This document shows positions 3,447 through 39,448 of a stretch of 44,895 nt of DNA, in pieces. The translations under genes and the position numbers were made by a program. The stretch comes from Escherichia phage VEc3: sequence record NC_047899.1; one strand, written 5' to 3'. Below the pieces are notes generated by a model that did not search any database, had not been told where the DNA came from, and saw only the letters and a program-made list of their open reading frames with translations. Each line of letters opens with the position of its first letter. Positions within the stretch are counted from its first letter, which is position 1.

Positions 3447-6074
3447 ATGCAAGACCTACACGCTATTCAACTTCAACTTGAAGAAGAAATGTTTAACGGC
3501 GGTATCCGTCGCTTTGAAGCGGACCAACAACGCCAGATTGCATCCGGTAATGAATCAGACACGGCATGGAATCGCCGCTTATTGTCCGAGTTAATCGCGC
3601 CAATGGCTGAAGGCATTCAGGCATACAAGGAAGAGTATGAAGGTAAAAGAGGCCGTGCACCGCGTGCATTAGCTTTCATTAACTGCGTAGAAAACGAAGT
3701 GGCAGCATATATCACGATGAAAATCGTTATGGATATGCTGAACACGGATGTAACCTTGCAGGCTATAGCCATGAATGTAGCTGACCGCATTGAGGACCAA
3801 GTACGTTTTAGCAAGCTGGAAGGTCACGCCGCCAAATACTTTGAGAAAGTTAAGAAGTCACTTAAGGCAAGTAAGACTAAATCATATCGCCATGCGCACA
3901 ACGTAGCGGTCGTGGCTGAGAAGTCAGTAGCTGACCGTGACGCTGATTTCTCTCGCTGGGAGGCGTGGCCTAAAGATACCTTGCTACAAATTGGTATGAC
4001 CTTGCTAGAAATACTGGAAAATAGTGTATTCTTCAATGGTCAGCCTGTCTTTCTTCGCACCTTGCGCACTAATGGTGGCAAGCATGGCGTTTACTACTTA
4101 CAGACTAGCGAACACGTGGGTGAATGGATAACTGCATTTAAAGAGCACGTAGCTCAGCTGAGTCCAGCCTATGCGCCTTGCGTTATTCCTCCTCGTCCGT
4201 GGGTTTCTCCGTTTAATGGTGGCTTCCATACTGAGAAAGTAGCAAGCCGTATTCGTCTAGTAAAAGGCAATCGTGAGCACGTCCGCAAGCTGACCAAAAA
4301 GCAAATGCCAGCGGTTTACAAGGCTGTTAACGCTTTGCAGGCGACTAAGTGGCAGGTTAATAAAGAGGTTTTGCAGGTAGTAGAGGACGTTATTCATCTC
4401 GACCTTGGTTATGGTGTGCCTTCCTTTAAACCACTCATCGACCGTGAGAACAAGCCAGCTAATCCAGTGCCGTTAGAGTTCCAGCACCTGCGAGGCCGTG
4501 AATTGAAAGAGATGCTAACACCGGAGCAATGGCAGGCCTTCATCAACTGGAAGGGTGAATGTACTAAGCTGTATACCGCTGAGACTAAGCGCGGCAGCAA
4601 GTCGGCGGCGACCGTCCGCATGGTAGGACAGGCCCGTAAATACAGCCAGTTTGACGCTATTTATTTTGTATATGCACTGGATAGCCGTTCACGCGTTTAT
4701 GCGCAATCTAGCACGCTCTCGCCGCAATCAAACGACTTAGGCAAGGCATTGCTCCGTTTTACCGAAGGGCAGCGTCTTGATAGCGCTGAGGCGCTTAAGT
4801 GGTTTTTGGTGAACGGGGCGAATAACTGGGGTTGGGATAAGAAAACTTTTGACGTGCGCACCTCTAACGTGCTGGATGGCGAATTTCAAGACATGTGCCG
4901 CGACATTGCAGCCGATCCGCTGACCTTCACTCAATGGGTAAATGCTGATTCCCCTTACGGCTTCCTTGCATGGTGCTTTGAATATGCGCGTTATCTGGAT
5001 GCACTGGATGAAGGCACGCAAGACCAATTCATGACGCATCTACCCGTCCATCAAGACGGTAGTTGCTCTGGTATCCAGCACTATAGCGCGATGTTACGCG
5101 ATGAAGTAGGTGCGAAAGCAGTAAACCTTAAGCCTTCTGACTTCCCTCAAGATATTTATGGCGCAGTCGCGCAGGTTGTTATCCAGAAGAATTACGCCTA
5201 CATGAATGCAGACGATGCAGTGACTTTCACATCTGGAAGCGTCACACTTACAGGTGCAGAACTGCGTAGCATGGCTAGTGCGTGGGATATGATAGGAATC
5301 ACTCGCGGATTGACCAAAAAGCCCGTAATGACACTACCTTATGGCAGCACACGTCTAACCTGCCGTGAATCAGTGATTGATTATATCGTTGATTTGGAAG
5401 AAAAAGAGGCCCAACGAGCTATTGCGGAAGGGCGTACCGCCAATCCTGTACATCCTTTTGATAATGACCGTAAGGACAGCCTGACACCTAGTGCAGCTTA
5501 TAACTATATGACGGCTTTAATCTGGCCTTCTATTTCGGAAGTGGTTAAAGCTCCTATAGTGGCAATGAAAATGATTCGTCAGCTTGCCCGTTTCGCAGCT
5601 AAAAGGAATGAAGGCTTAGAGTATACCTTGCCTACTGGCTTCATCTTGCAACAAAAGATTATGGCTACCGACATGCTACGCGTATCCACTTGCTTGATGG
5701 GTGAAATCAAGATGAGTCTACAGATTGAGACTGATGTAGTGGATGAAACGGCTATGATGGGCGCTGCTGCTCCTAACTTTGTTCACGGGCATGATGCTAG
5801 TCATCTCATCCTGACTGTATGTGACCTCGTTGACAAGGGCATTACATCCATCGCAGTCATCCATGATTCTTTCGGTACTCACGCAGGCCGTACAGCCGAT
5901 CTACGTGATAGTCTAAGGGCAGAAATGGTGAAGATGTATCAAGGCCGTAATGCCCTGCAAAGCCTGTTAGATGAGCATGAAGAACGCTGGTTAGTAGACA
6001 CCGGAATCCAAGTGCCAGAGCAAGGAGAGTTTGACCTTAACGAAATCTTAGTATCTGACTATTGCTTCGCATAA
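3447..6074 (+). CDS. DNA-directed RNA polymerase, single-subunit, SP6-type
   Basis: 875 aa; begins [32 protein letters not shown] and contains [27 protein letters not shown] and IHDSFGTH motifs; ends ...DYCFA like T7-family RNAPs. Confidence 0.95.
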
Positions 6075-17077: not shown

Positions 17078-18077
17078 GCTTCGCAGCTTGTACAAAGACT
17101 CCGAGGTACTTGATGCAATCGAGCAAGCTACCGACGAGAAAGGTAATGTTAATTACAATGAGATGGCACGTGTATTATCGTGTCACCCTGTGGGTAAGAA
17201 GATTACCCGCCAGTTGGCTCGATACTGGCATGGTCAATTCAAGAAGACCAAGAAGAATGGTGATTATTACCAGACCCTTCTGCAAGAAGATAAGCGTATC
17301 AAAGAAGAGCGTAAGCTCAGGACTCCTGACCGCTACGAGGATTTGGCTATTGTACCATTGCCTGACTCACCTCATCGAAGTGTACTGGTAATCCCAGATA
17401 CTCATGCACCTTATGAGCATCCAGATACCTTAGAGTTCCTTGCAGCAGTCGCGGCACGTTACCGTCCAGATACAGTGGTTCACTTAGGGGATGAGGCAGA
17501 TAAACACGCCCTCTCCTTCCATGACTCTGACCCGAATCTGGATAGTGCTGGCATGGAGCTAGAGAAGGCTCGTGTCTTCATGCACAAGTTGCACAAGATG
17601 TTCCCTGTGATGCGCCTGTGTCATTCTAATCATGGCTCTATGCACTTCCGTAAGGCAAGCGCCAAGGGTATTCCAGTGCAATATCTTCGCACCTACCGTG
17701 AAGTCTTCTTCCCAAATGGAGGTGGCGACCAGTGGGATTGGCAGCATACACATGTTCTTGAGTTGCCGAATGGTGAACAAGTGGCATTCAAGCATCAACC
17801 TGCTGGCTCTGTCCTAGCAGATGCAGCGCATGAGCGTATGAACCTTGTGTGTGGTCACTTGCACGGTAAGATGTCTGTGGAGTACGCACGTAATACACAT
17901 GAACAGTATTGGGCTGTGCAAGGTGGCTGCTTAATTGATGAGTCATCCCGTGCATTTGCCTATGGGCGTGAGTCTAAATACAAGCCAGCATTAGGTTGTG
18001 TGGTTATTCTGGAGGGTGTACCTCATATTGTCCCGATGCAAACCAATAGCGACAACCGTTGGATTGGCAAGATTTAG
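17070..18077 (+). CDS. Calcineurin-like metallophosphoesterase
   Basis: Motifs IPDTHAPYEH, LGDEADKH, CHSNHG, GHLHG; TTG start 17070 with AAGGAGG RBS preferred over track start 16938, which overlaps the endo VII gene; in-frame ATG at 17163 is an alternative. Confidence 0.6.
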   Translation: MGKLRSLYKDSEVLDAIEQATDEKGNVNYNEMARVLSCHPVGKKITRQLARYWHGQFKKTKKNGDYYQTLLQEDKRIKEERKLRTPDRYEDLAIVPLPDSPHRSVLVIPDTHAPYEHPDTLEFLAAVAARYRPDTVVHLGDEADKHALSFHDSDPNLDSAGMELEKARVFMHKLHKMFPVMRLCHSNHGSMHFRKASAKGIPVQYLRTYREVFFPNGGGDQWDWQHTHVLELPNGEQVAFKHQPAGSVLADAAHERMNLVCGHLHGKMSVEYARNTHEQYWAVQGGCLIDESSRAFAYGRESKYKPALGCVVILEGVPHIVPMQTNSDNRWIGKI

Positions 18078-18094
18078 TTGACACTATAGAACAA
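18072..18094 (+). promoter_or_regulatory. Phage RNAP promoter (ATTTAGTTGACACTATAGAACAA)
   Basis: Closest of all copies to the classical SP6 promoter; +1 G at 18089. Confidence 0.65.
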
Positions 18095-19917: not shown

Positions 19918-20115
19918 ATGTCTTTTGATTCTATGAAGGCAACTCGTGCTGTTGAGGTAGCAGAGGCCATCTTCGAAACTCTATCCTGTGGCATGGAAGT
20001 GCCATATACTTTACTGGCTGATGCAGAAGAACTTGGTCTTTCTGTAGAAGCTATCCAAGAGAAGGTTGACGAATTATATGGTACAGACGAAGAAGAAACC
20101 GACGATTTCATTTGA
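19918..20115 (+). CDS. Small acidic protein (65 aa)
   Basis: ATG 19918 with AAGGAGG RBS; acidic C-terminus EEETDDFI; track ORF 19858 is over-extended. Confidence 0.5.
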   Translation: MSFDSMKATRAVEVAEAIFETLSCGMEVPYTLLADAEELGLSVEAIQEKVDELYGTDEEETDDFI

Positions 20116-20125
20116 AGGAATGGAG

Positions 20126-20248
20126 ATGCTTGAGATGATTCTCAAGCCTTCTTCCCCGAAGGTGACTAAGACTCATGAAGAGTTAATCGTTGATGAAGTG
20201 AAGCGTTACATCATGGATTGTGTCAGAGCACAACTGGTGGTCCAATGA
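20126..20248 (+). CDS. Small ORF (40 aa), hypothetical
   Basis: ATG 20126 with AAGGA 6 nt upstream; ends with ATGA overlap into the next gene. Confidence 0.35.
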   Translation: MLEMILKPSSPKVTKTHEELIVDEVKRYIMDCVRAQLVVQ

Positions 20249-20706
20249 TACGTCCAGCTTCCTTCCTAGATATTCCTGAGATTATAAACCTTGGGAATAA
20301 ATATGTGGAAGAGGAAGTCAAGGTTGTAGCCCACCACTCAGCCTCATGGAATGCAGAACAAAGCGCACATAACCTTTGCGCATCTCTTAGTAGAGAAGAT
20401 TTATTCCTATGGGTTGCTGTAGATGAAGGGCGGATTGTAGGGTTCCTGTGGGCTGGCTATCACGAGTTGGCCCCTTGGACACCTGTAAGGGTTGCCTCTG
20501 ACATTCTCTTTTATATTATACCAGAGAAGCGAGGAACCTTACTTGGTATGCGTCTCATCAAAGCCCTAAAGCAATGGGCTAGTGATAATGAATGCTCTGA
20601 GGTTCGCCTGTCTATCGCCTCTGGTATTAATGAAGAACGTGTCGGACGTATGTATAAGCGACTTGGCTTTGAACCGTTTGGCACTGTGTACAACCTGAAG
20701 TTCTAA
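20245..20706 (+). CDS. GNAT-family N-acetyltransferase
   Basis: 153 aa; acetyl-CoA-binding signature in EKRGTLLGMRLIKALKQWA, preceded by GRIVGF strand. Confidence 0.7.
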   Translation: MIRPASFLDIPEIINLGNKYVEEEVKVVAHHSASWNAEQSAHNLCASLSREDLFLWVAVDEGRIVGFLWAGYHELAPWTPVRVASDILFYIIPEKRGTLLGMRLIKALKQWASDNECSEVRLSIASGINEERVGRMYKRLGFEPFGTVYNLKF

Positions 20707-20715
20707 GGAGATAAC

Positions 20716-20925
20716 ATGGGTGTTGTAAAGAAAGCATTTAAGGCTATCGGTCTTGCTCAAGATGCACCACGTATTGAAGCCAAAGTCCCAGCACAGCAGC
20801 TTGAGCGTAAGCCTGAGACTGAAGCTGAAGATATTCAAATTGGTGCAGGTGGTGATGATGCGACTGCATCTGCAAAAGGTAAGCGCGGCCTTGTCCGTCC
20901 GGTAGCTTCTAGCTTGAAGGTGTAA
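20716..20925 (+). CDS. Small protein upstream of portal (69 aa), possible virion protein
   Basis: Track ORF; AAGGAG RBS; position analogous to T7 gp6.7/7.3. Confidence 0.4.
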   Translation: MGVVKKAFKAIGLAQDAPRIEAKVPAQQLERKPETEAEDIQIGAGGDDATASAKGKRGLVRPVASSLKV

Positions 20926-20926
20926 T

Positions 20927-22477
20927 ATGAAACAGAGCACAGATTTGGAGTATGGAGGTAAGCGGTCTAAGATACCTAAGCTATGGGAGAAGTTCTCCAC
21001 TAAACGTAGCTCTTTCCTTGATAGGGCGAAGCATTACTCCAAATTAACCTTGCCCTATCTGATGAATGACAAAGGTGATAACGAGACTTCGCAGAATGGA
21101 TGGCAAGGTGTAGGTGCTCAGGCAACTAATCATCTAGCCAACAAGCTAGCGCAAGTACTATTCCCTGCACAGCGTTCCTTCTTCCGTGTAGACTTAACTG
21201 CACAAGGTGAGAAGGTTCTTAATCAGCGTGGCCTGAAGAAGACAGAGCTAGCTACCATCTTCGCTCAAGTGGAAACACGGGCAATGAAAGAGTTAGAGCA
21301 ACGTCAATTCCGGCCTGCTGTAGTGGAAGCATTCAAGCATCTTATTGTTGCTGGTAGTTGTATGCTATACAAGCCGAGCAAAGGTGCAATCAGTGCTATC
21401 CCAATGCATCACTATGTAGTTAACCGTGATACCAATGGCGACCTGTTAGACATTATCTTACTGCAAGAGAAAGCCTTACGCACCTTTGACCCAGCTACAC
21501 GTGCTGTAGTAGAGGTTGGCCTGAAAGGTAAGAAGTGCAAGGAGGATGACAGCGTTAAGCTGTACACACATGCTAAGTATCTTGGTGATGGATTTTGGGA
21601 ACTCAAGCAATCTGCTGATGATATCCCTGTGGGTAAGGTGAGTAAAATCAAATCAGAAAAGCTACCTTTCATCCCATTAACTTGGAAGCGAAGCTATGGT
21701 GAGGATTGGGGTCGCCCTCTTGCAGAGGATTACTCCGGTGATTTATTCGTTATCCAATTCTTATCTGAAGCGGTTGCCCGTGGTGCTGCGCTGATGGCAG
21801 ATATCAAGTACCTGATTCGTCCGGGTGCTCAAACTGATGTTGACCACTTTGTTAACTCTGGCACTGGTGAGGTTGTCACTGGTGTAGAAGAAGACATCCA
21901 TATTGTACAGTTAGGTAAATACGCAGACCTCACACCTATTAGCGCGGTTCTAGAGGTATACACTCGCCGTATCGGTGTTGTCTTCATGATGGAGACAATG
22001 ACACGCCGTGACGCCGAACGTGTTACTGCTGTAGAAATCCAGCGAGATGCGTTAGAGATTGAGCAGAACATGGGTGGTGTATACTCCCTCTTTGCTACTA
22101 CTATGCAATCGCCAGTAGCGATGTGGGGTCTGCTGGAGGCAGGGGAGTCCTTCACTAGTGACTTAGTGGACCCTGTGATTATCACAGGTATTGAAGCTTT
22201 AGGACGCATGGCTGAGTTGGATAAACTGGCTAACTTTGCTCAGTATATGTCACTGCCATTACAATGGCCTGAGCCTGTACTAGCTGCTGTGAAATGGCCT
22301 GACTATATGGATTGGGTGCGTGGTCAAATCTCTGCTGAACTGCCGTTCCTTAAATCGGCTGAAGAGATGGCACAAGAACAGGAAGCACAGATGCAAGCAC
22401 AGCAAGCACAGATGCTTGAAGAAGGTGTGGCTAAGGCCGTGCCGGGTGTAATTCAACAAGAACTTAAGGAGGCGTAA
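20927..22477 (+). CDS. Portal (head-to-tail connector) protein
   Basis: 516 aa; N-terminal block GWQGVGAQATNHLANKLAQVLFP resembles T7 gp8. Confidence 0.85.
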   Translation: MKQSTDLEYGGKRSKIPKLWEKFSTKRSSFLDRAKHYSKLTLPYLMNDKGDNETSQNGWQGVGAQATNHLANKLAQVLFPAQRSFFRVDLTAQGEKVLNQRGLKKTELATIFAQVETRAMKELEQRQFRPAVVEAFKHLIVAGSCMLYKPSKGAISAIPMHHYVVNRDTNGDLLDIILLQEKALRTFDPATRAVVEVGLKGKKCKEDDSVKLYTHAKYLGDGFWELKQSADDIPVGKVSKIKSEKLPFIPLTWKRSYGEDWGRPLAEDYSGDLFVIQFLSEAVARGAALMADIKYLIRPGAQTDVDHFVNSGTGEVVTGVEEDIHIVQLGKYADLTPISAVLEVYTRRIGVVFMMETMTRRDAERVTAVEIQRDALEIEQNMGGVYSLFATTMQSPVAMWGLLEAGESFTSDLVDPVIITGIEALGRMAELDKLANFAQYMSLPLQWPEPVLAAVKWPDYMDWVRGQISAELPFLKSAEEMAQEQEAQMQAQQAQMLEEGVAKAVPGVIQQELKEA

Positions 22478-23402: not shown

Positions 23403-23425
23403 ATTTACTGGACACTATAGAAGGG
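23403..23425 (+). promoter_or_regulatory. Phage RNAP promoter for the capsid gene
   Basis: ATTTACTGGACACTATAGAAGGG; +1 G at 23420; transcript begins with hairpin GGGAGA-AATG-TCTCCC, then TAAGGAGG RBS. Confidence 0.75.
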
Positions 23426-24679: not shown

Positions 24680-24687
24680 TACCTATG

Positions 24688-24723
24688 CCCTATCTACCTT
24701 GCGTAGGTAGGGTTCTTTTTGTT
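24688..24723 (+). terminator. Terminator after the capsid gene
   Basis: CCCTATCTACC-TTGCG-TAGGTAGGG then TTCTTTTTGTT. Confidence 0.75.
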
Positions 24724-24733
24724 AGGAGGATTC

Positions 24734-25471
24734 ATGCCTGTAATTAAACAAACCAGTAAAGTAGGACACATGATGGAAGATGTGGCCTTCCAGATTATTG
24801 ATAGCAAGCTTGAAGCGGTCAACTTGTGTATGCGAGCTATTGGTCGTGAGGGTGTGGATTCTCTCGACTCAGGCGATCTTGATGCAGAAGATGCAAGTAA
24901 GATGATTGATATTGTATCCCAGCGCTTCCAGTATAACAAAGGCGGTGGCTGGTGGTTCAATCGTGAACCTAACTGGCAGCTTGCACCAGACACGAACGGT
25001 GAGATTAACTTGCCTAATAACTGCCTAGCTGTATTGCAGTGCTACGCATTGGGTGAGAAGAAAGTGCCTATGACTATGCGTGCAGGTAAGCTTTACTCCA
25101 CATGGAGTCACACCTTTGATATGCGCAAGCATGTTAATGCTAATGGCATGATTCGTCTTACCTTACTCACCTTACTACCCTACGAGCATCTACCTACAAG
25201 TGTAATGCAGGCTATTGCCTATCAAGCTGCTGTAGAGTTTATTGTGTCTAAGGATGCAGATCAGACTAAGCTAGCCACTGCGCAGCAGATAGCCACTCAG
25301 CTTCTTATGGATGTACAATCTGAGCAAATGTCACAGAAGCGATTAAACATGCTGGTACATAATCCCACTCAGCGTCAATTTGGTATCATGGCTGGTGGCT
25401 CTCAGAATGTACCTGCTTACTCTCATTCACCTTATGATAGTTGGGCACTCCGTCCTTGGGAGGATCGTTAA
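24734..25471 (+). CDS. Tail tubular protein A (gp11-like)
   Basis: 245 aa from ATG 24734 (AGGAGGA RBS); track ORF 24719 slightly over-extended. Confidence 0.65.
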   Translation: MPVIKQTSKVGHMMEDVAFQIIDSKLEAVNLCMRAIGREGVDSLDSGDLDAEDASKMIDIVSQRFQYNKGGGWWFNREPNWQLAPDTNGEINLPNNCLAVLQCYALGEKKVPMTMRAGKLYSTWSHTFDMRKHVNANGMIRLTLLTLLPYEHLPTSVMQAIAYQAAVEFIVSKDADQTKLATAQQIATQLLMDVQSEQMSQKRLNMLVHNPTQRQFGIMAGGSQNVPAYSHSPYDSWALRPWEDR

Positions 25472-27873
25472 TGGAAGTACAAGGTTCATTAGGCAGACAA
25501 ATCCAAGGGATTAGCCAGCAACCGCCAACGGTGCGCTTGGATGGTCAGTGCACAGCTATGGTTAATATGATGCCTGATGTAGTGAATGGTACTCAATCAC
25601 GCATGGGTACAACTCATATTGCAAAGATACTTGATGCGGGGACTGATGACATGGCTACTCATCATTATCGCAGAGGTGATGGTGATGAAGAGTATTTCTT
25701 CACGTTGAAGAAAGGACAAGTTCCTGAGATATTTGATAAGTATGGGCGCAAATGTAATGTGACTTCACAAGATGCACCTATGGCTTACTTGGCTGAGGTG
25801 ATAAACCCAAGAGAAGATGTGCAATTTATGACGATAGCTGATGTTACTTTCATGCTTAACCGCAGGAAGGTAGTTAAAGCTAGTAACAGAAAGTCACCCA
25901 AAGTTGGAAACAAAGCCATTGTGTTTTGTGCATATGGTCAATACGGTACATCTTATTCCATTGTAATTAATGGGGCCAACGCTGCTAGTTTTAAAACACC
26001 GGATGGTGGAAGTGCAGACCATGTTGAACAAATTCGAACTGAACGTATCACTTCTGAATTGTACTCTAAGTTACAGCAATGGAGCGGTGTGAGTGACTAT
26101 GAAATACAAAGAGATGGTACTAGTATATTTATCGAGAGACGGGATGGTGCTAGCTTTACAATAACAACCACCGATGGTGCAAAAGGTAAGGATTTAGTGG
26201 CTATCAAGAATAAAGTTAGCTCTACTGACCTACTCCCTTCTCGTGCGCCTGCGGGTTATAAAGTGCAAGTGTGGCCTACTGGCAGCAAACCTGAGTCTCG
26301 TTACTGGCTGCAAGCTGAGCCTAAAGAGGGAAACCTTGTATCTTGGAAAGAAACAATAGCTGCCGATGTATTACTTGGGTTTGATAAAGGCACAATGCCT
26401 TATATCATTGAACGTACAGGTATCGTAGACGGCATAGCTCAATTCAAGATAAGACAAGGCGATTGGGAAGATCGTAAAGTAGGAGATGACCTGACTAACC
26501 CTATGCCTTCTTTTATTGATGAAGAAGTACCTCAGACAATAGGTGGGATGTTCATGGTGCAGAACCGCCTATGCTTTACAGCAGGTGAAGCTGTTATTGC
26601 TTCTCGTACATCATACTTCTTCGATTTCTTTCGTTATACGGTTATCTCTGCATTGGCAACTGACCCATTTGATATTTTCTCAGATGCTAGTGAAGTCTAC
26701 CAGCTAAAACATGCAGTGACCTTAGATGGCGCTACCGTGTTGTTCTCTGATAAGTCACAATTCATACTGCCAGGAGATAAGCCTTTAGAGAAGTCAAATG
26801 CATTGCTTAAGCCTGTTACAACATTTGAAGTGAACAATAAAGTGAAGCCAGTAGTAACTGGTGAATCGGTAATGTTTGCCACTAATGATGGTTCTTACTC
26901 TGGTGTACGAGAGTTCTATACAGACTCTTATAGTGACACTAAGAAGGCACAAGCAATCACAAGTCATGTGAATAAACTCATCGAAGGTAACATTACCAAC
27001 ATGGCAGCAAGCACCAATGTCAACAGGTTACTTGTCACTACCGATAAGTATCGTAACATAATCTACTGCTACGATTGGTTATGGCAAGGAACAGACCGTG
27101 TACAATCAGCATGGCATGTATGGAAGTGGCCTATAGGTACAAAGGTGCGAGGTATGTTTTATTCTGGCGAATTACTTTACCTGCTCCTTGAGAGAGGCAA
27201 TGGTGTCTATCTGGAGAAGATGGATATGGGTGATGCATTAACCTATGGTTTAAATGATCGTATCCGAATGGATAGACAGGCAGAGTTAATCTTCCAGCAT
27301 TTCAAAGCAGAAGATGAGTGGGTATCTGAACCGCTACCTTGGGTTCCTACTAACCCAGAACTTTTAGATTGCATCTTAATCGAGGGTTGGGATTCATATA
27401 TTGGTGGTTCTTTCCTATTCAAATACAACCCCGGTGATAACACCTTGTCTACAACCTTTGATATGCATGATGATAGCCACGTAAAAGCGAAGGTTATTGT
27501 TGGTCAGATTTACCCTCAAGAGTTTGAACCAACACCTGTAGTTATCAGAGATAGGCAAGACCGTGTATCCTATATTGATGTACCTGTTGTGGGATTAGTT
27601 CACCTTAATCTTGATATGTATCCTGATTTCTCCGTGGAGGTTAAGAATGTGAAGAGTGGTAAAGTACGCAGGGTGCTGGCGTCAAACCGTATAGGTGGTG
27701 CTCTCAACAATACAGTAGGTTATGTTGAACCAAGAGAGGGTGTCTTCAGATTCCCACTGAGGGCTAAGAGTACGGATGCTGTTTATCGTATTATTGTAGA
27801 ATCACCTCACACATTCCAGCTCCGCGATATTGAGTGGGAAGGGAGCTACAATCCAACCAAAAGGAGGGTCTAA
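25471..27873 (+). CDS. Tail tubular protein B (gp12-like)
   Basis: 800 aa from ATG 25471 (TAATG coupling, GGAGGA RBS); size and position match gp12. Confidence 0.75.
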   Translation: MEVQGSLGRQIQGISQQPPTVRLDGQCTAMVNMMPDVVNGTQSRMGTTHIAKILDAGTDDMATHHYRRGDGDEEYFFTLKKGQVPEIFDKYGRKCNVTSQDAPMAYLAEVINPREDVQFMTIADVTFMLNRRKVVKASNRKSPKVGNKAIVFCAYGQYGTSYSIVINGANAASFKTPDGGSADHVEQIRTERITSELYSKLQQWSGVSDYEIQRDGTSIFIERRDGASFTITTTDGAKGKDLVAIKNKVSSTDLLPSRAPAGYKVQVWPTGSKPESRYWLQAEPKEGNLVSWKETIAADVLLGFDKGTMPYIIERTGIVDGIAQFKIRQGDWEDRKVGDDLTNPMPSFIDEEVPQTIGGMFMVQNRLCFTAGEAVIASRTSYFFDFFRYTVISALATDPFDIFSDASEVYQLKHAVTLDGATVLFSDKSQFILPGDKPLEKSNALLKPVTTFEVNNKVKPVVTGESVMFATNDGSYSGVREFYTDSYSDTKKAQAITSHVNKLIEGNITNMAASTNVNRLLVTTDKYRNIIYCYDWLWQGTDRVQSAWHVWKWPIGTKVRGMFYSGELLYLLLERGNGVYLEKMDMGDALTYGLNDRIRMDRQAELIFQHFKAEDEWVSEPLPWVPTNPELLDCILIEGWDSYIGGSFLFKYNPGDNTLSTTFDMHDDSHVKAKVIVGQIYPQEFEPTPVVIRDRQDRVSYIDVPVVGLVHLNLDMYPDFSVEVKNVKSGKVRRVLASNRIGGALNNTVGYVEPREGVFRFPLRAKSTDAVYRIIVESPHTFQLRDIEWEGSYNPTKRRV

Positions 27874-28595
27874 TGGCTATAGGTTCTGCCGTTATGGCTG
27901 GTATGTCTTCTATTGGTAGTATGTTTACAGGCAGCGGTGCAGCAGCCGCTGCTGGAGATGCTGCCGCAGGTGGCGGAGGCTTGCTAGGTTCTCTAGGTGG
28001 CTTCCTAAGCGGCTCTACTGCTGGCTTCTCTAATGCTGGGCTTCTTGGTGCTGGCCTTCAAGGTTTAGGCTTGATTGGTGATCTCTTTGGTGGAAGTGAT
28101 GAAGCCAAGGCAATGAAGAAAGCACAAGAAGAACAGTGGCGGCAGCAACTTATTGCTACACAAGAAGCATACAAAACAGTAGCAGATGCAGAGCGTTCTG
28201 CTGCTAAACAATATCATGCAGATGCAATAAGCAATCAGGCTTCACTACTACAGCAGCGAGCACAGGTTGCATTACTAGCAGGTGCTACTGGTACTGGTGG
28301 TAACTCTGTATCTTCTATGCTGAATGACTTAGCAGCAGAGGGCGGGAGGAACCAGAGTACAATTATTGATAACTATGAGAATCAGAAGATTAACTTCACC
28401 AATCAGCTTAAGTCTATCCAGCGAGGTGGACAGATGCAGATGCGTGAGTTTAAGAAGCCTTCTGCCGTGAGCACCTTGGTGCAAGGTATACCGAGTCTGG
28501 CATCTGCCTATGTAACAGGTAGTAAGTCCGGCATGGCTTTAGGTAAAGCTTTAACTGATTCTCGTACATATTCATCTGGAACAAGAGGTATTTAA
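27873..28595 (+). CDS. Internal virion protein, Gly/Ala-rich (gp13/14-like)
   Basis: 240 aa from ATG 27873 (AGGAGGG RBS); N-terminal glycine-rich hydrophobic region. Confidence 0.5.
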   Translation: MAIGSAVMAGMSSIGSMFTGSGAAAAAGDAAAGGGGLLGSLGGFLSGSTAGFSNAGLLGAGLQGLGLIGDLFGGSDEAKAMKKAQEEQWRQQLIATQEAYKTVADAERSAAKQYHADAISNQASLLQQRAQVALLAGATGTGGNSVSSMLNDLAAEGGRNQSTIIDNYENQKINFTNQLKSIQRGGQMQMREFKKPSAVSTLVQGIPSLASAYVTGSKSGMALGKALTDSRTYSSGTRGI

Positions 28596-38860: not shown

Positions 38861-39139
38861 ATGGCTAATGATTATAGTAGTCAACCATTAACAGGTAAGT
38901 CTAAGAGAAAGCAGGTACAACTTGTAAGTGAAGAACTAATGCTTCCGGTAATCAAAAAAGAGGAAGCTAGTAAGAAAAGCAATGTCATTAATGATGCCAC
39001 CAAATCAGGTAAACAGAAAGGGGCCATGGTGTGCCTTGAAGCGGAAGGTGGTGTATTGAAGATTGCTATCGCGGTTGATGGCAAAGAAGATTCAGAGTGG
39101 AAGTTAGTAACAGTGGGAACCACTGTTACCCCAGTTTAA
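38861..39139 (+). CDS. Small protein, paralog A (92 aa)
   Basis: Shares SGKQKGAMV-LE...IA-A...W...TP with the adjacent ORF; strong RBS. Confidence 0.6.
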   Translation: MANDYSSQPLTGKSKRKQVQLVSEELMLPVIKKEEASKKSNVINDATKSGKQKGAMVCLEAEGGVLKIAIAVDGKEDSEWKLVTVGTTVTPV

Positions 39140-39157: not shown

Positions 39158-39448
39158 ATGGCTGAATATGGTACTACAGGTTCTGTTACGGGTCAGGCTT
39201 TTAGAGTGAAAGCAGTACAAACTGTTGCAACGGCAATCCCGATGCCTGTTGTTAAAGAAGAAGACCTTAAGAGTAAAGATCACCCTATCAACATCAAACA
39301 TTTATCAGGTAAACAGAAAGGTGCAATGGTTGCTCTTGAGAAAAAGAACACAACCTTACATATTGCTGTTGCACATGGTAGTGAACCAACAGACCCTTGG
39401 TATGTAACTAGCATGGAATCGCTCGCTGTCACTCCAGCAGGTGGATAA
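39158..39448 (+). CDS. Small protein, paralog B (96 aa)
   Basis: Paralogous to 38861-39139; AAGGAGG RBS. Confidence 0.6.
   Translation: MAEYGTTGSVTGQAFRVKAVQTVATAIPMPVVKEEDLKSKDHPINIKHLSGKQKGAMVALEKKNTTLHIAVAHGSEPTDPWYVTSMESLAVTPAGG

Follow-up and report, generated by a model that had tools for sequence, protein, structure and literature searches.

Escherichia phage VEc3 (sequence record NC_047899.1) was analysed as one window of 44,895 nucleotides, which is a complete Vectrevirus genome (K1E/K1-5-like; Molineuxvirinae, SP6 group). The gene at positions 20245-20706 encodes a protein of 153 residues, here called the VEc3 GNAT, which on the evidence of its predicted structure is a genuine and strongly conserved GNAT-fold protein. 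It is an already annotated gene and belongs to a large phage family, PHROG 1249, whose members, judging from their gene neighbourhoods, are physically linked with the genes for virion structure, ejection and assembly, in at least two different gene orders. Our tentative proposal, which we hold at a little under an even chance, is that the VEc3 GNAT is a protein acetyltransferase dependent on acetyl-CoA, produced late and absent from the virion, with a part in the assembly of ejected or internal virion proteins, and as such a functional equivalent of internal virion protein A (IVP-A). A first-pass annotation made from the sequence alone had suggested host takeover, counter-defence or toxin-like tRNA acetylation; it left out the link to virion assembly, to which family membership and neighbourhood point.

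Fold, predicted acetyl-CoA site and conservation of the VEc3 GNAT

The coding sequence and its two GNAT motifs are located as follows.

20245-20706, + strand: VEc3 GNAT coding sequence, 153 residues plus TAA; equivalent of K1E gene 27, member of PHROG 1249
20521-20547, + strand: beta4-alpha3 acetyl-CoA (pyrophosphate) loop, P93-E-K-R96-G97-T-L-L-G101, inside the Pfam GNAT match
20620-20670, + strand: C-terminal GNAT motif (alpha4), S126-G-I-N-E-E-R-V-G-R-M-Y138-K-R-L-G-F142, from family alignments, including the usual tyrosine position

The clear GNAT signature that the first-pass annotation had read in the protein is confirmed by three Pfam models, all of which match above their cut-offs: Acetyltransf_1 (PF00583; E 1.2e-9, 38.9 bits against a cut-off of 20.7), Acetyltransf_7 (PF13508; 36.3 against 27) and Acetyltransf_10 (PF13673; 25.6 against 23.6). 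PHROG 1249 ('acetyltransferase') is matched over residues 1-151 with an E-value of 1.1e-53. The nearest sequences of solved structure, the DpA polyamine acetyltransferase (8a9o, E 1e-5), SSAT2 (E 1.4e-4) and AAC(6'), are generic small GNATs, and in an NCBIfam scan the matches to RimI, AAC(6'), ArsN1 and MshD are all far below cut-off. Because no NCBIfam model comes near its cut-off, homology gives no readout of the substrate class.

An AlphaFold2 model, calculated with 19 homologues as input, has a mean predicted local distance difference test score (pLDDT) of 88 and a predicted template-modelling score (pTM) of 0.84. The secondary structure elements follow each other in the GNAT order b1-a1-a2-b2-b3-b4-a3-b5-a4-b6. 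When the model was compared with the PDB using Foldseek, 683 chains matched at E<=1e-3; the 50 matches listed are GNATs without exception, with template-modelling (TM) scores between 0.60 and 0.80, and include Naa60, phosphinothricin/BAR acetyltransferases, RimI-type enzymes, SSAT and AAC(6').

The acetyl-CoA loop reads R96-G97-T-L-L-G101, as compared with a family consensus of PE-RG---G, and is one residue longer than the canonical Q/R-x-x-G-x-G/A. Conservation was evaluated over 60 diverse family members, down to about 25% identity to the VEc3 GNAT. Within the SP6-like set, R96 and G97 never vary; over the 60 members they are at least 90% conserved, as are R3, A5, D9, G66, W111, G141 and G146. 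As read from these alignments, the loop appears largely intact. The alpha4 tyrosine (Y138) is common in the family, with phenylalanine or leucine in its place in a minority of members, so this residue is not strictly required. The conservation of the loop and of these residues across divergent members favours a cofactor-binding protein, and the VEc3 GNAT is probably an active enzyme, unlike gp13 of T7, which is discussed below.

The start of the gene is the ATG at 20245, since in the homologue alignment every protein opens with MIRPA; a TTG at 20218, in frame nine codons upstream, was rejected for the same reason. In an ATGA, this start codon shares bases with the TGA that ends the small open reading frame (ORF) before it; a GGTGG is located 4 nt 5' of the ATG, and translation of the VEc3 GNAT is probably coupled to that of the small ORF. 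Between the VEc3 and K1E genes there are 28 synonymous and 6 non-synonymous differences, giving a ratio of non-synonymous to synonymous substitution rates (dN/dS) of 0.05; the gene is under strong purifying selection. Its G+C content is 45.8%, against 45.0% for the genome, and by composition it is a native gene.

Over 12 kb surrounding the gene, VEc3 shares 97.6% identity with Escherichia phage KMB47 and with many others, and the protein itself is 100% identical to the 'putative acetyltransferase' of phage ULINTec6 and to a protein of Vectrevirus T205P5. The K1E gene 27 product ('acetyltransferase', YP_425004) is 96% identical, has the same length and is encoded between the same neighbours (ligase, genes 25 and 26, GNAT, gene 28, portal); it is the same gene, with no material difference. 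Identity decreases to 76% for SP6, 61% for Proteus phage PM93, 41% for Erwinia phage Era103 and 27-38% for proteins of Vibrio, Marinomonas, Pseudomonas, Pectobacterium, Yersinia and Roseobacter phages. A tblastn search with the VEc3 GNAT matches 229 phage records. Among 1.84 billion representatives of 50%-identity clusters, an SP6-like profile retrieves 5,617 clusters at E<=1e-3 and 1,158 at E<=1e-10. Most of the 150 profile matches listed are about 150 residues long. Some family members have 318-385 residues and contain two GNAT domains in tandem; when the longer members were inspected for fusion partners that might hint at function, only this tandem GNAT-GNAT arrangement was present, with no other domain. 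A literature search found no functional work on the SP6/K1E acetyltransferase gene.

Gene orders around the family and the place of T7 gp13

Downstream of the VEc3 GNAT lie a small ORF and the portal gene, in agreement with the first-pass placement of the gene just upstream of the structural block.

20716-20925, + strand: ORF of 69 residues, equivalent of K1E gene 28 (PHROG 9033, E 1e-12; PHROG 1320, E 2e-11; synteny)
20927-22477, + strand: portal (head-tail connector) gene, from the ORF list and synteny with K1E

The 69-residue protein is similar to the small virion protein of the T7 gp7.3 type ('host range and adsorption'). The order of small ORFs, GNAT, small gp7.3-like virion protein and portal is also seen in K1E, in Pseudomonas phage MR4 (Gajwadongvirus), whose homologue matches PHROG 1249, and in Vibrio phage phiA318 and Marinomonas phage CPP1m (both Colwellvirinae). 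A more divergent protein occupies the same slot in LUZ19 and MR8 (Krylovirinae), in Henninger and 17A (Ghunavirus, Studiervirinae) and in fHe-Kpn01 (Drulisvirus); in T7, the slot holds gene 7, and it is called slot 7 here. In all, a GNAT or GNAT-like gene is found in this slot in six lineages of Autographiviridae: Molineuxvirinae, Colwellvirinae, Gajwadongvirus, Krylovirinae, Slopekvirinae and Ghunavirus. Because the GNAT slot recurs across these lineages, no support remains for the first-pass view of GNATs as unusual in T7-like phages, and genes of this kind are common in the T7 supergroup; the 229 matching phage records and the predicted GNAT fold of T7 gp13 (see below) also speak against it. 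The slot protein of phage phiPsa17 is absent from the reported structural proteome of that phage.

The product of T7 gene 7 (PHROG 2746, 'host range') shares with the VEc3 GNAT the position directly before a small virion protein gene and the portal gene. It differs in having no significant match to the VEc3 GNAT family and no Pfam GNAT match, and no significant link at the sequence level was found from the VEc3 family to it. PHROG 2746 is weakly hit (E about 1e-5) by MR8 gp35 and Henninger gp6, both members of the family of the LUZ19 protein Rac, and hhalign sets the T7 gp7 stretch HHKGDILDVTSVVINPEADSKG on the Rac-family pattern 'HVGPCL..W.YVLPEYRG'. T7 gp7 may thus be a degenerate GNAT relative, with weak statistics and a null Pfam result.

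A second gene order is found in more distant relatives. The family hidden Markov model (HMM) matches p29 of Roseophage SIO1 (E 5e-38) and proteins of Yersinia phage YeP4 (2e-52) and Alcaligenes phage QDWS535 (2e-29), all of which belong to PHROG 1249 and, where tested, are above the Pfam GNAT thresholds. In YeP4 the GNAT gene lies between an upstream tail protein gene (PHROG 376) and a downstream internal virion protein gene (PHROG 418), in SIO1 between a 'tail appendage' gene and gp26.1/gp26, and in QDWS535 downstream of Hc3, which is like P22 gp10, after a gap of about 560 bp, approximately at the position of P22 gene 14. Hardies et al. (2016) described a nonstructural gene of the acetyltransferase family in the IVP-A slot, noted that IVP-A of T7 (gp13) has matches among acetyltransferases and that morphogenesis depends on it but the virion does not retain it, and reported IVP-A homologues in P22 and epsilon15 (PMC4819975, for T7 citing Kemp et al. 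2005). These IVP-A-slot GNATs, from SIO1/VpV262/YeP4-like and P22-like phages, share the PHROG of the VEc3 protein, align with it over the full length at 27-31% identity, contain the same GNAT motifs and have genes that directly precede one for a small ejected or internal virion protein. They are located between tail and ejection-protein genes; the VEc3 GNAT is instead upstream of the gp7.3-like gene and the portal gene.

Both arrangements recur in metagenomic sequences. At 38 IMG/VR loci recovered with the family alignment, portals were identified with an HMM built from the VEc3 portal and other T7-like portals. The GNAT is followed by one or more small ORFs and a T7-type portal gene at 17 of the 38 loci, while most of the others have a large ORF upstream of the GNAT and large ORFs downstream; homologues of the YeP4-type tail gene are present at five.

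T7 gp13 (PF11090, PHROG 308) is comparable to the VEc3 GNAT: it is a small (about 140 residues), nonstructural protein whose gene lies among the virion genes. When the gp13 family was modelled (pLDDT 93.6), the 50 PDB matches listed were all GNATs, including RimI, PA4794 and SpeG (E about 3e-5, TM about 0.6), which confirms, at the level of prediction, that gp13 has a GNAT fold. It differs in gene position, in the absence of a recognisable CoA loop and of a Pfam GNAT match, and in having no demonstrable sequence relationship to the VEc3 GNAT: hhalign of the VEc3 family against T7 gp13 aligns just 18 N-terminal residues (the MIRP-x-x-x-D strand), with a probability of 59%. Because the CoA loop is missing, gp13 probably works without catalysis. 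The profile comparison of the VEc3 family with gp14 of P22 (Pfam DUF2824, annotated 'head morphogenesis') was not significant. As a separate observation, a YLPEIRG sequence in P22 gp14 is in register with the family pattern Y-V-x-P-E-x-R-G.

In VEc3 the IVP-A slot is empty, the tail tubular protein B gene being followed directly by an IVP-B-like gene, with no gene like gp13 or IVP-A between them.

25441-27873, + strand: tail tubular protein B ORF (start codon not refined), context of the IVP-A slot
27834-28595, + strand: internal virion protein B (IVP-B)-like ORF (K1E gp34); PHROG 805 'internal virion protein', E 3e-52, matched from residue 67

After the IVP-B-like gene come the genes of two ejection proteins of 982 and 1,102 residues, and the sizes given for K1E gp34-36 (PMC8954989) agree with those of these three VEc3 proteins. 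The IVP-B-like ORF runs about 66 codons (27834-28031, + strand) 5' of the PHROG match, overlapping the end of the tail tubular protein B ORF; its true start is probably internal, as K1E gp34 is listed with 240 residues. A gp13-family HMM has no match in any frame of a six-frame translation of the VEc3 genome. LUZ19, phiA318 and fHe-Kpn01 are also without gp13, while T7 and Ghunavirus 17A have gp13 plus a slot-7 gene. A published table for a T3-like Citrobacter phage gives gp6.7, gp7.3 and gp8 with no gene 7; the same paper lists gp13 for a second, Dev2-like phage. In this small sample, six genomes examined and one published table, each genome has at least one small GNAT-fold gene in its virion gene block. 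The lack of a gp13 homologue in VEc3 is consistent with one protein replacing the other.

Transcription unit and neighbouring reading frames

The elements that delimit the transcription unit, and the small ORFs before the GNAT gene, are listed here.

18072-18092, + strand: phage RNA polymerase promoter ATTTAGTTGACACTATAGAAC, a ATTTACTGGACACTATAGAAG-type copy that heads the transcription unit holding the VEc3 GNAT
19918-20115, + strand: small ORF, equivalent of K1E gene 25; PHROG 5860 (unknown function)
20078-20248, + strand: small ORF whose TGA runs into the GNAT ATG; counterpart of K1E gene 26, in PHROG 6507 (unknown function)
23403-23423, + strand: next phage promoter, a ATTTACTGGACACTATAGAAG-type copy before the major capsid gene
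24687-24713, + strand: first strong terminator-like hairpin downstream, after the capsid gene
6175, 8895, 9743, 13240, 13703, 14934, 18081, 23412, 36166 and 38703, + strand: promoter copies of the ATTTACTGGACACTATAGAAG consensus

Within the ATTTACTGGACACTATAGAAG consensus is the SP6-type promoter core ACACTATAG, and all ten copies are on the plus strand. The VEc3 GNAT gene is located between the copies at 18081 and 23412, with no copy in between. Given this location, and with the first strong hairpin at 24687-24713, the gene is predicted to share a transcript with the kinase and ligase genes, both small ORFs, the gp7.3-like ORF and the genes for portal and scaffold. An ORF of 875 residues at 3447-6074 (E 1e-111 to the T7 RNA polymerase), 14 kb upstream of the GNAT gene, encodes the phage RNA polymerase itself.

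If the K1E start annotation is adopted, the first 38 nt of gene 26 coincide with the end of gene 25. Starting instead at an ATG at 20120, which has a GAAGGA ribosome-binding site, would abolish the overlap; the PHROG 6507 match speaks for the longer form. Elsewhere in the window, two tandem paralogous ORFs on the plus strand (38861-39139 and 39158-39448) encode proteins of 92 and 96 residues, 38% identical to each other (E 3e-16). Their K1E counterpart is labelled 'putative acetyl-CoA acetyltransferase' in a published table for a related phage, a label that looks unfounded, as neither protein has a Pfam match.

Candidate roles and their bearing on virion assembly

In the proposed assembly role, the VEc3 GNAT would be made at the onset of late expression, would stay out of the virion and would act as an acetyl-CoA-dependent protein N-acetyltransferase. 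It would help to build small ejected or internal virion proteins, namely the gp7.3-like gp28 and the core of gp34/35/36, into infectious particles, and so would be the functional counterpart of T7 gp13 and P22 gp14. The toxicity on overexpression and the host-protein acetylation known from its slot relatives Rac and fHe-Kpn01 gp38 would then be a side activity or a lineage-specific one. Observations in favour of this role are the GNAT fold, the purifying selection, the relatives in the IVP-A slot, the missing gp13, the fixed gene order and the fact that slot relatives have gone undetected in virions. Several points weigh against it. The link between the VEc3 family and T7 gp13 is at the level of the fold only, and that with P22 gp14 is not significant; T7 gp13 has no CoA loop, whereas the PHROG 1249 family keeps it; the VEc3 GNAT itself is outside the IVP-A slot; the complementarity between gp13 and slot-7 genes comes from the small sample described above; and the slot-7 relatives that have been tested experimentally, Rac (PMC7552054) and gp38 (PMC7291057), point to host-directed effects.

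A wider form of the assembly proposal is speculative, and we consider it unlikely to hold as a whole. According to it, the slot-7 GNAT of the gp13-less SP6-like, phiKMV-like, KP34-like and Colwellvirinae phages would be a relocated, still active IVP-A assembly factor, acetylation of small ejected or internal core proteins would be a required step towards infectious podovirus particles, and T7 gp13, T7 gp7 and P22 gp14 would derive from the same ancestor and have degenerated to non-catalytic forms.

The main rival to the assembly role, although to us an improbable one, is a host takeover in the manner of Rac, in which host proteins would be acetylated at the middle-to-late switch and host functions shut down or redirected. 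Rac is gp28 of LUZ19; its expression leads to cleavage of the alpha-subunit of the host RNA polymerase, an effect abolished by mutation of the acetyl-CoA pocket, and it raises protein acetylation and is toxic (PMC7552054). A recent atlas of phiKMV-like virions mentions neither Rac nor acetylation. The gene for Rac lies in slot 7, in the order small ORF, GNAT, small virion protein, portal, and abuts the first structural gene, as in VEc3, and the protein has the same size and belongs to the GNAT fold family. Another occupant of the slot directly before a small virion protein gene and the portal gene, gp38 of the Drulisvirus fHe-Kpn01, is toxic in E. coli and matches N-acetyltransferases in HHpred (PMC7291057), although it has no significant match to the VEc3 GNAT family and no Pfam GNAT match; it carries no 'virion-associated' note, while its neighbours do. 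Rac and the VEc3 GNAT belong to different PHROGs (3986 and 1249), with no match between them in BLASTP and no PHROG 3986 hit for the VEc3 GNAT. Profiles reach further: Rac matches PHROG 1249 at E 5e-4, the comparison of the VEc3 family with the Rac family (four members, aligned from phage records) gives a probability of 89% and an E-value of 2e-6 over 109 columns, MR8 gp35 is 30% identical to the VEc3 GNAT over 114 residues (E 6e-7), and the best match of the Rac-family HMM in the six-frame translated VEc3 genome is the VEc3 GNAT ORF. Remote homology to Rac is therefore supported by sequence comparison, at the profile level only.

Other observations fit poorly with a Rac-like role. Cleavage of the alpha-subunit is specific to Phikmvvirus, and the LKA1 GNAT at the same location does not cause it (PMC7552054). 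In LUZ19, Rac adjoins the late-encoded RNA polymerase gene, whereas in VEc3 the polymerase gene is early and distant. Close members of the VEc3 family occur in SIO1-like and P22-like phages. To our knowledge, these phages have no RNA polymerase of their own, and for this reason host RNA polymerase shut-off is not expected to be the general role of the family. The first-pass suggestion of host takeover by acetylation thus keeps a precedent in a positional relative, a precedent that is genus-specific and comes from a protein only remotely related to the VEc3 GNAT.

Two further roles have a small chance each. In the first, the GNAT fold would serve as a scaffold for ejection-protein or tail assembly without acetyl transfer, making the protein a catalytically silent assembly chaperone, as T7 gp13 appears to be. 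The state of the gp13 site, the replacement of the catalytic tyrosine in a minority of the family and the departure of the loop from the canonical pattern are in line with this. However, R96 and G97 are conserved across very divergent members, the three Pfam GNAT models are passed, and relatives at 25-30% identity are still above the Pfam GNAT cut-offs; a purely structural role would be unexpected given this retention of the cofactor site. In the second, similarly doubtful, the enzyme would acetylate a small molecule such as a polyamine or an antibiotic-like compound, altering the milieu during DNA packaging or detoxifying a metabolite of the host or a competitor. The nearest solved sequences, polyamine or diamine acetyltransferases and AAC(6'), and the weak NCBIfam similarity to ArsN1, AAC(6') and RimI point in this direction; all these matches are generic for small GNATs, the structural matches to protein N-terminal acetyltransferases (Naa60, RimI-type) are equally good, and the locked position beside virion genes would be left unexplained.

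The remaining two roles, both put forward in the first-pass annotation, were rejected, as no feature supports them. Phage GNATs can inactivate defence proteins, AcrVA5 being an example, and it is from this general precedent, with no support found in the present analysis, that inactivation of a host immune protein by acetylation would have to be argued. Anti-defence genes are typically early, variable and patchy. The VEc3 GNAT gene is a core, syntenic and slowly evolving gene across many subfamilies and hosts, is expressed with the late genes and gives no PADLOC-related signal, so that counter-defence is very unlikely. Least probable is a toxin of the TacT/AtaT/ItaT type that would block translation by acetylating tRNA: the small size of the protein and the toxicity of gp38 would agree with it, but there is no toxin-antitoxin GNAT among the PDB and NCBIfam sequence matches or the 50 structural matches listed, no antitoxin-type neighbour (the PHROG 6507 ORF and the gp7.3-like ORF have no significant Pfam match), and a translation block during structural-gene expression would harm the phage.

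As a gene, the VEc3 GNAT is an ordinary, annotated core gene of a well-sequenced phage group. What the analysis adds is a connection between the slot-7 GNAT of SP6-like phages, the acetyltransferases of the IVP-A slot and the missing gp13, and with it a testable hypothesis. In short-tailed phages, the genes for ejection and assembly appear to be accompanied almost constantly by a cofactor-binding enzyme fold. K1E, K1-5 and SP6 are genetically tractable, and the question to be asked of them is whether the acetyltransferase works in virion assembly, like T7 gp13, or in host shut-off, like Rac. The answer may bear on the engineering of the therapeutic K1-specific and Klebsiella phages that carry the GNAT gene.

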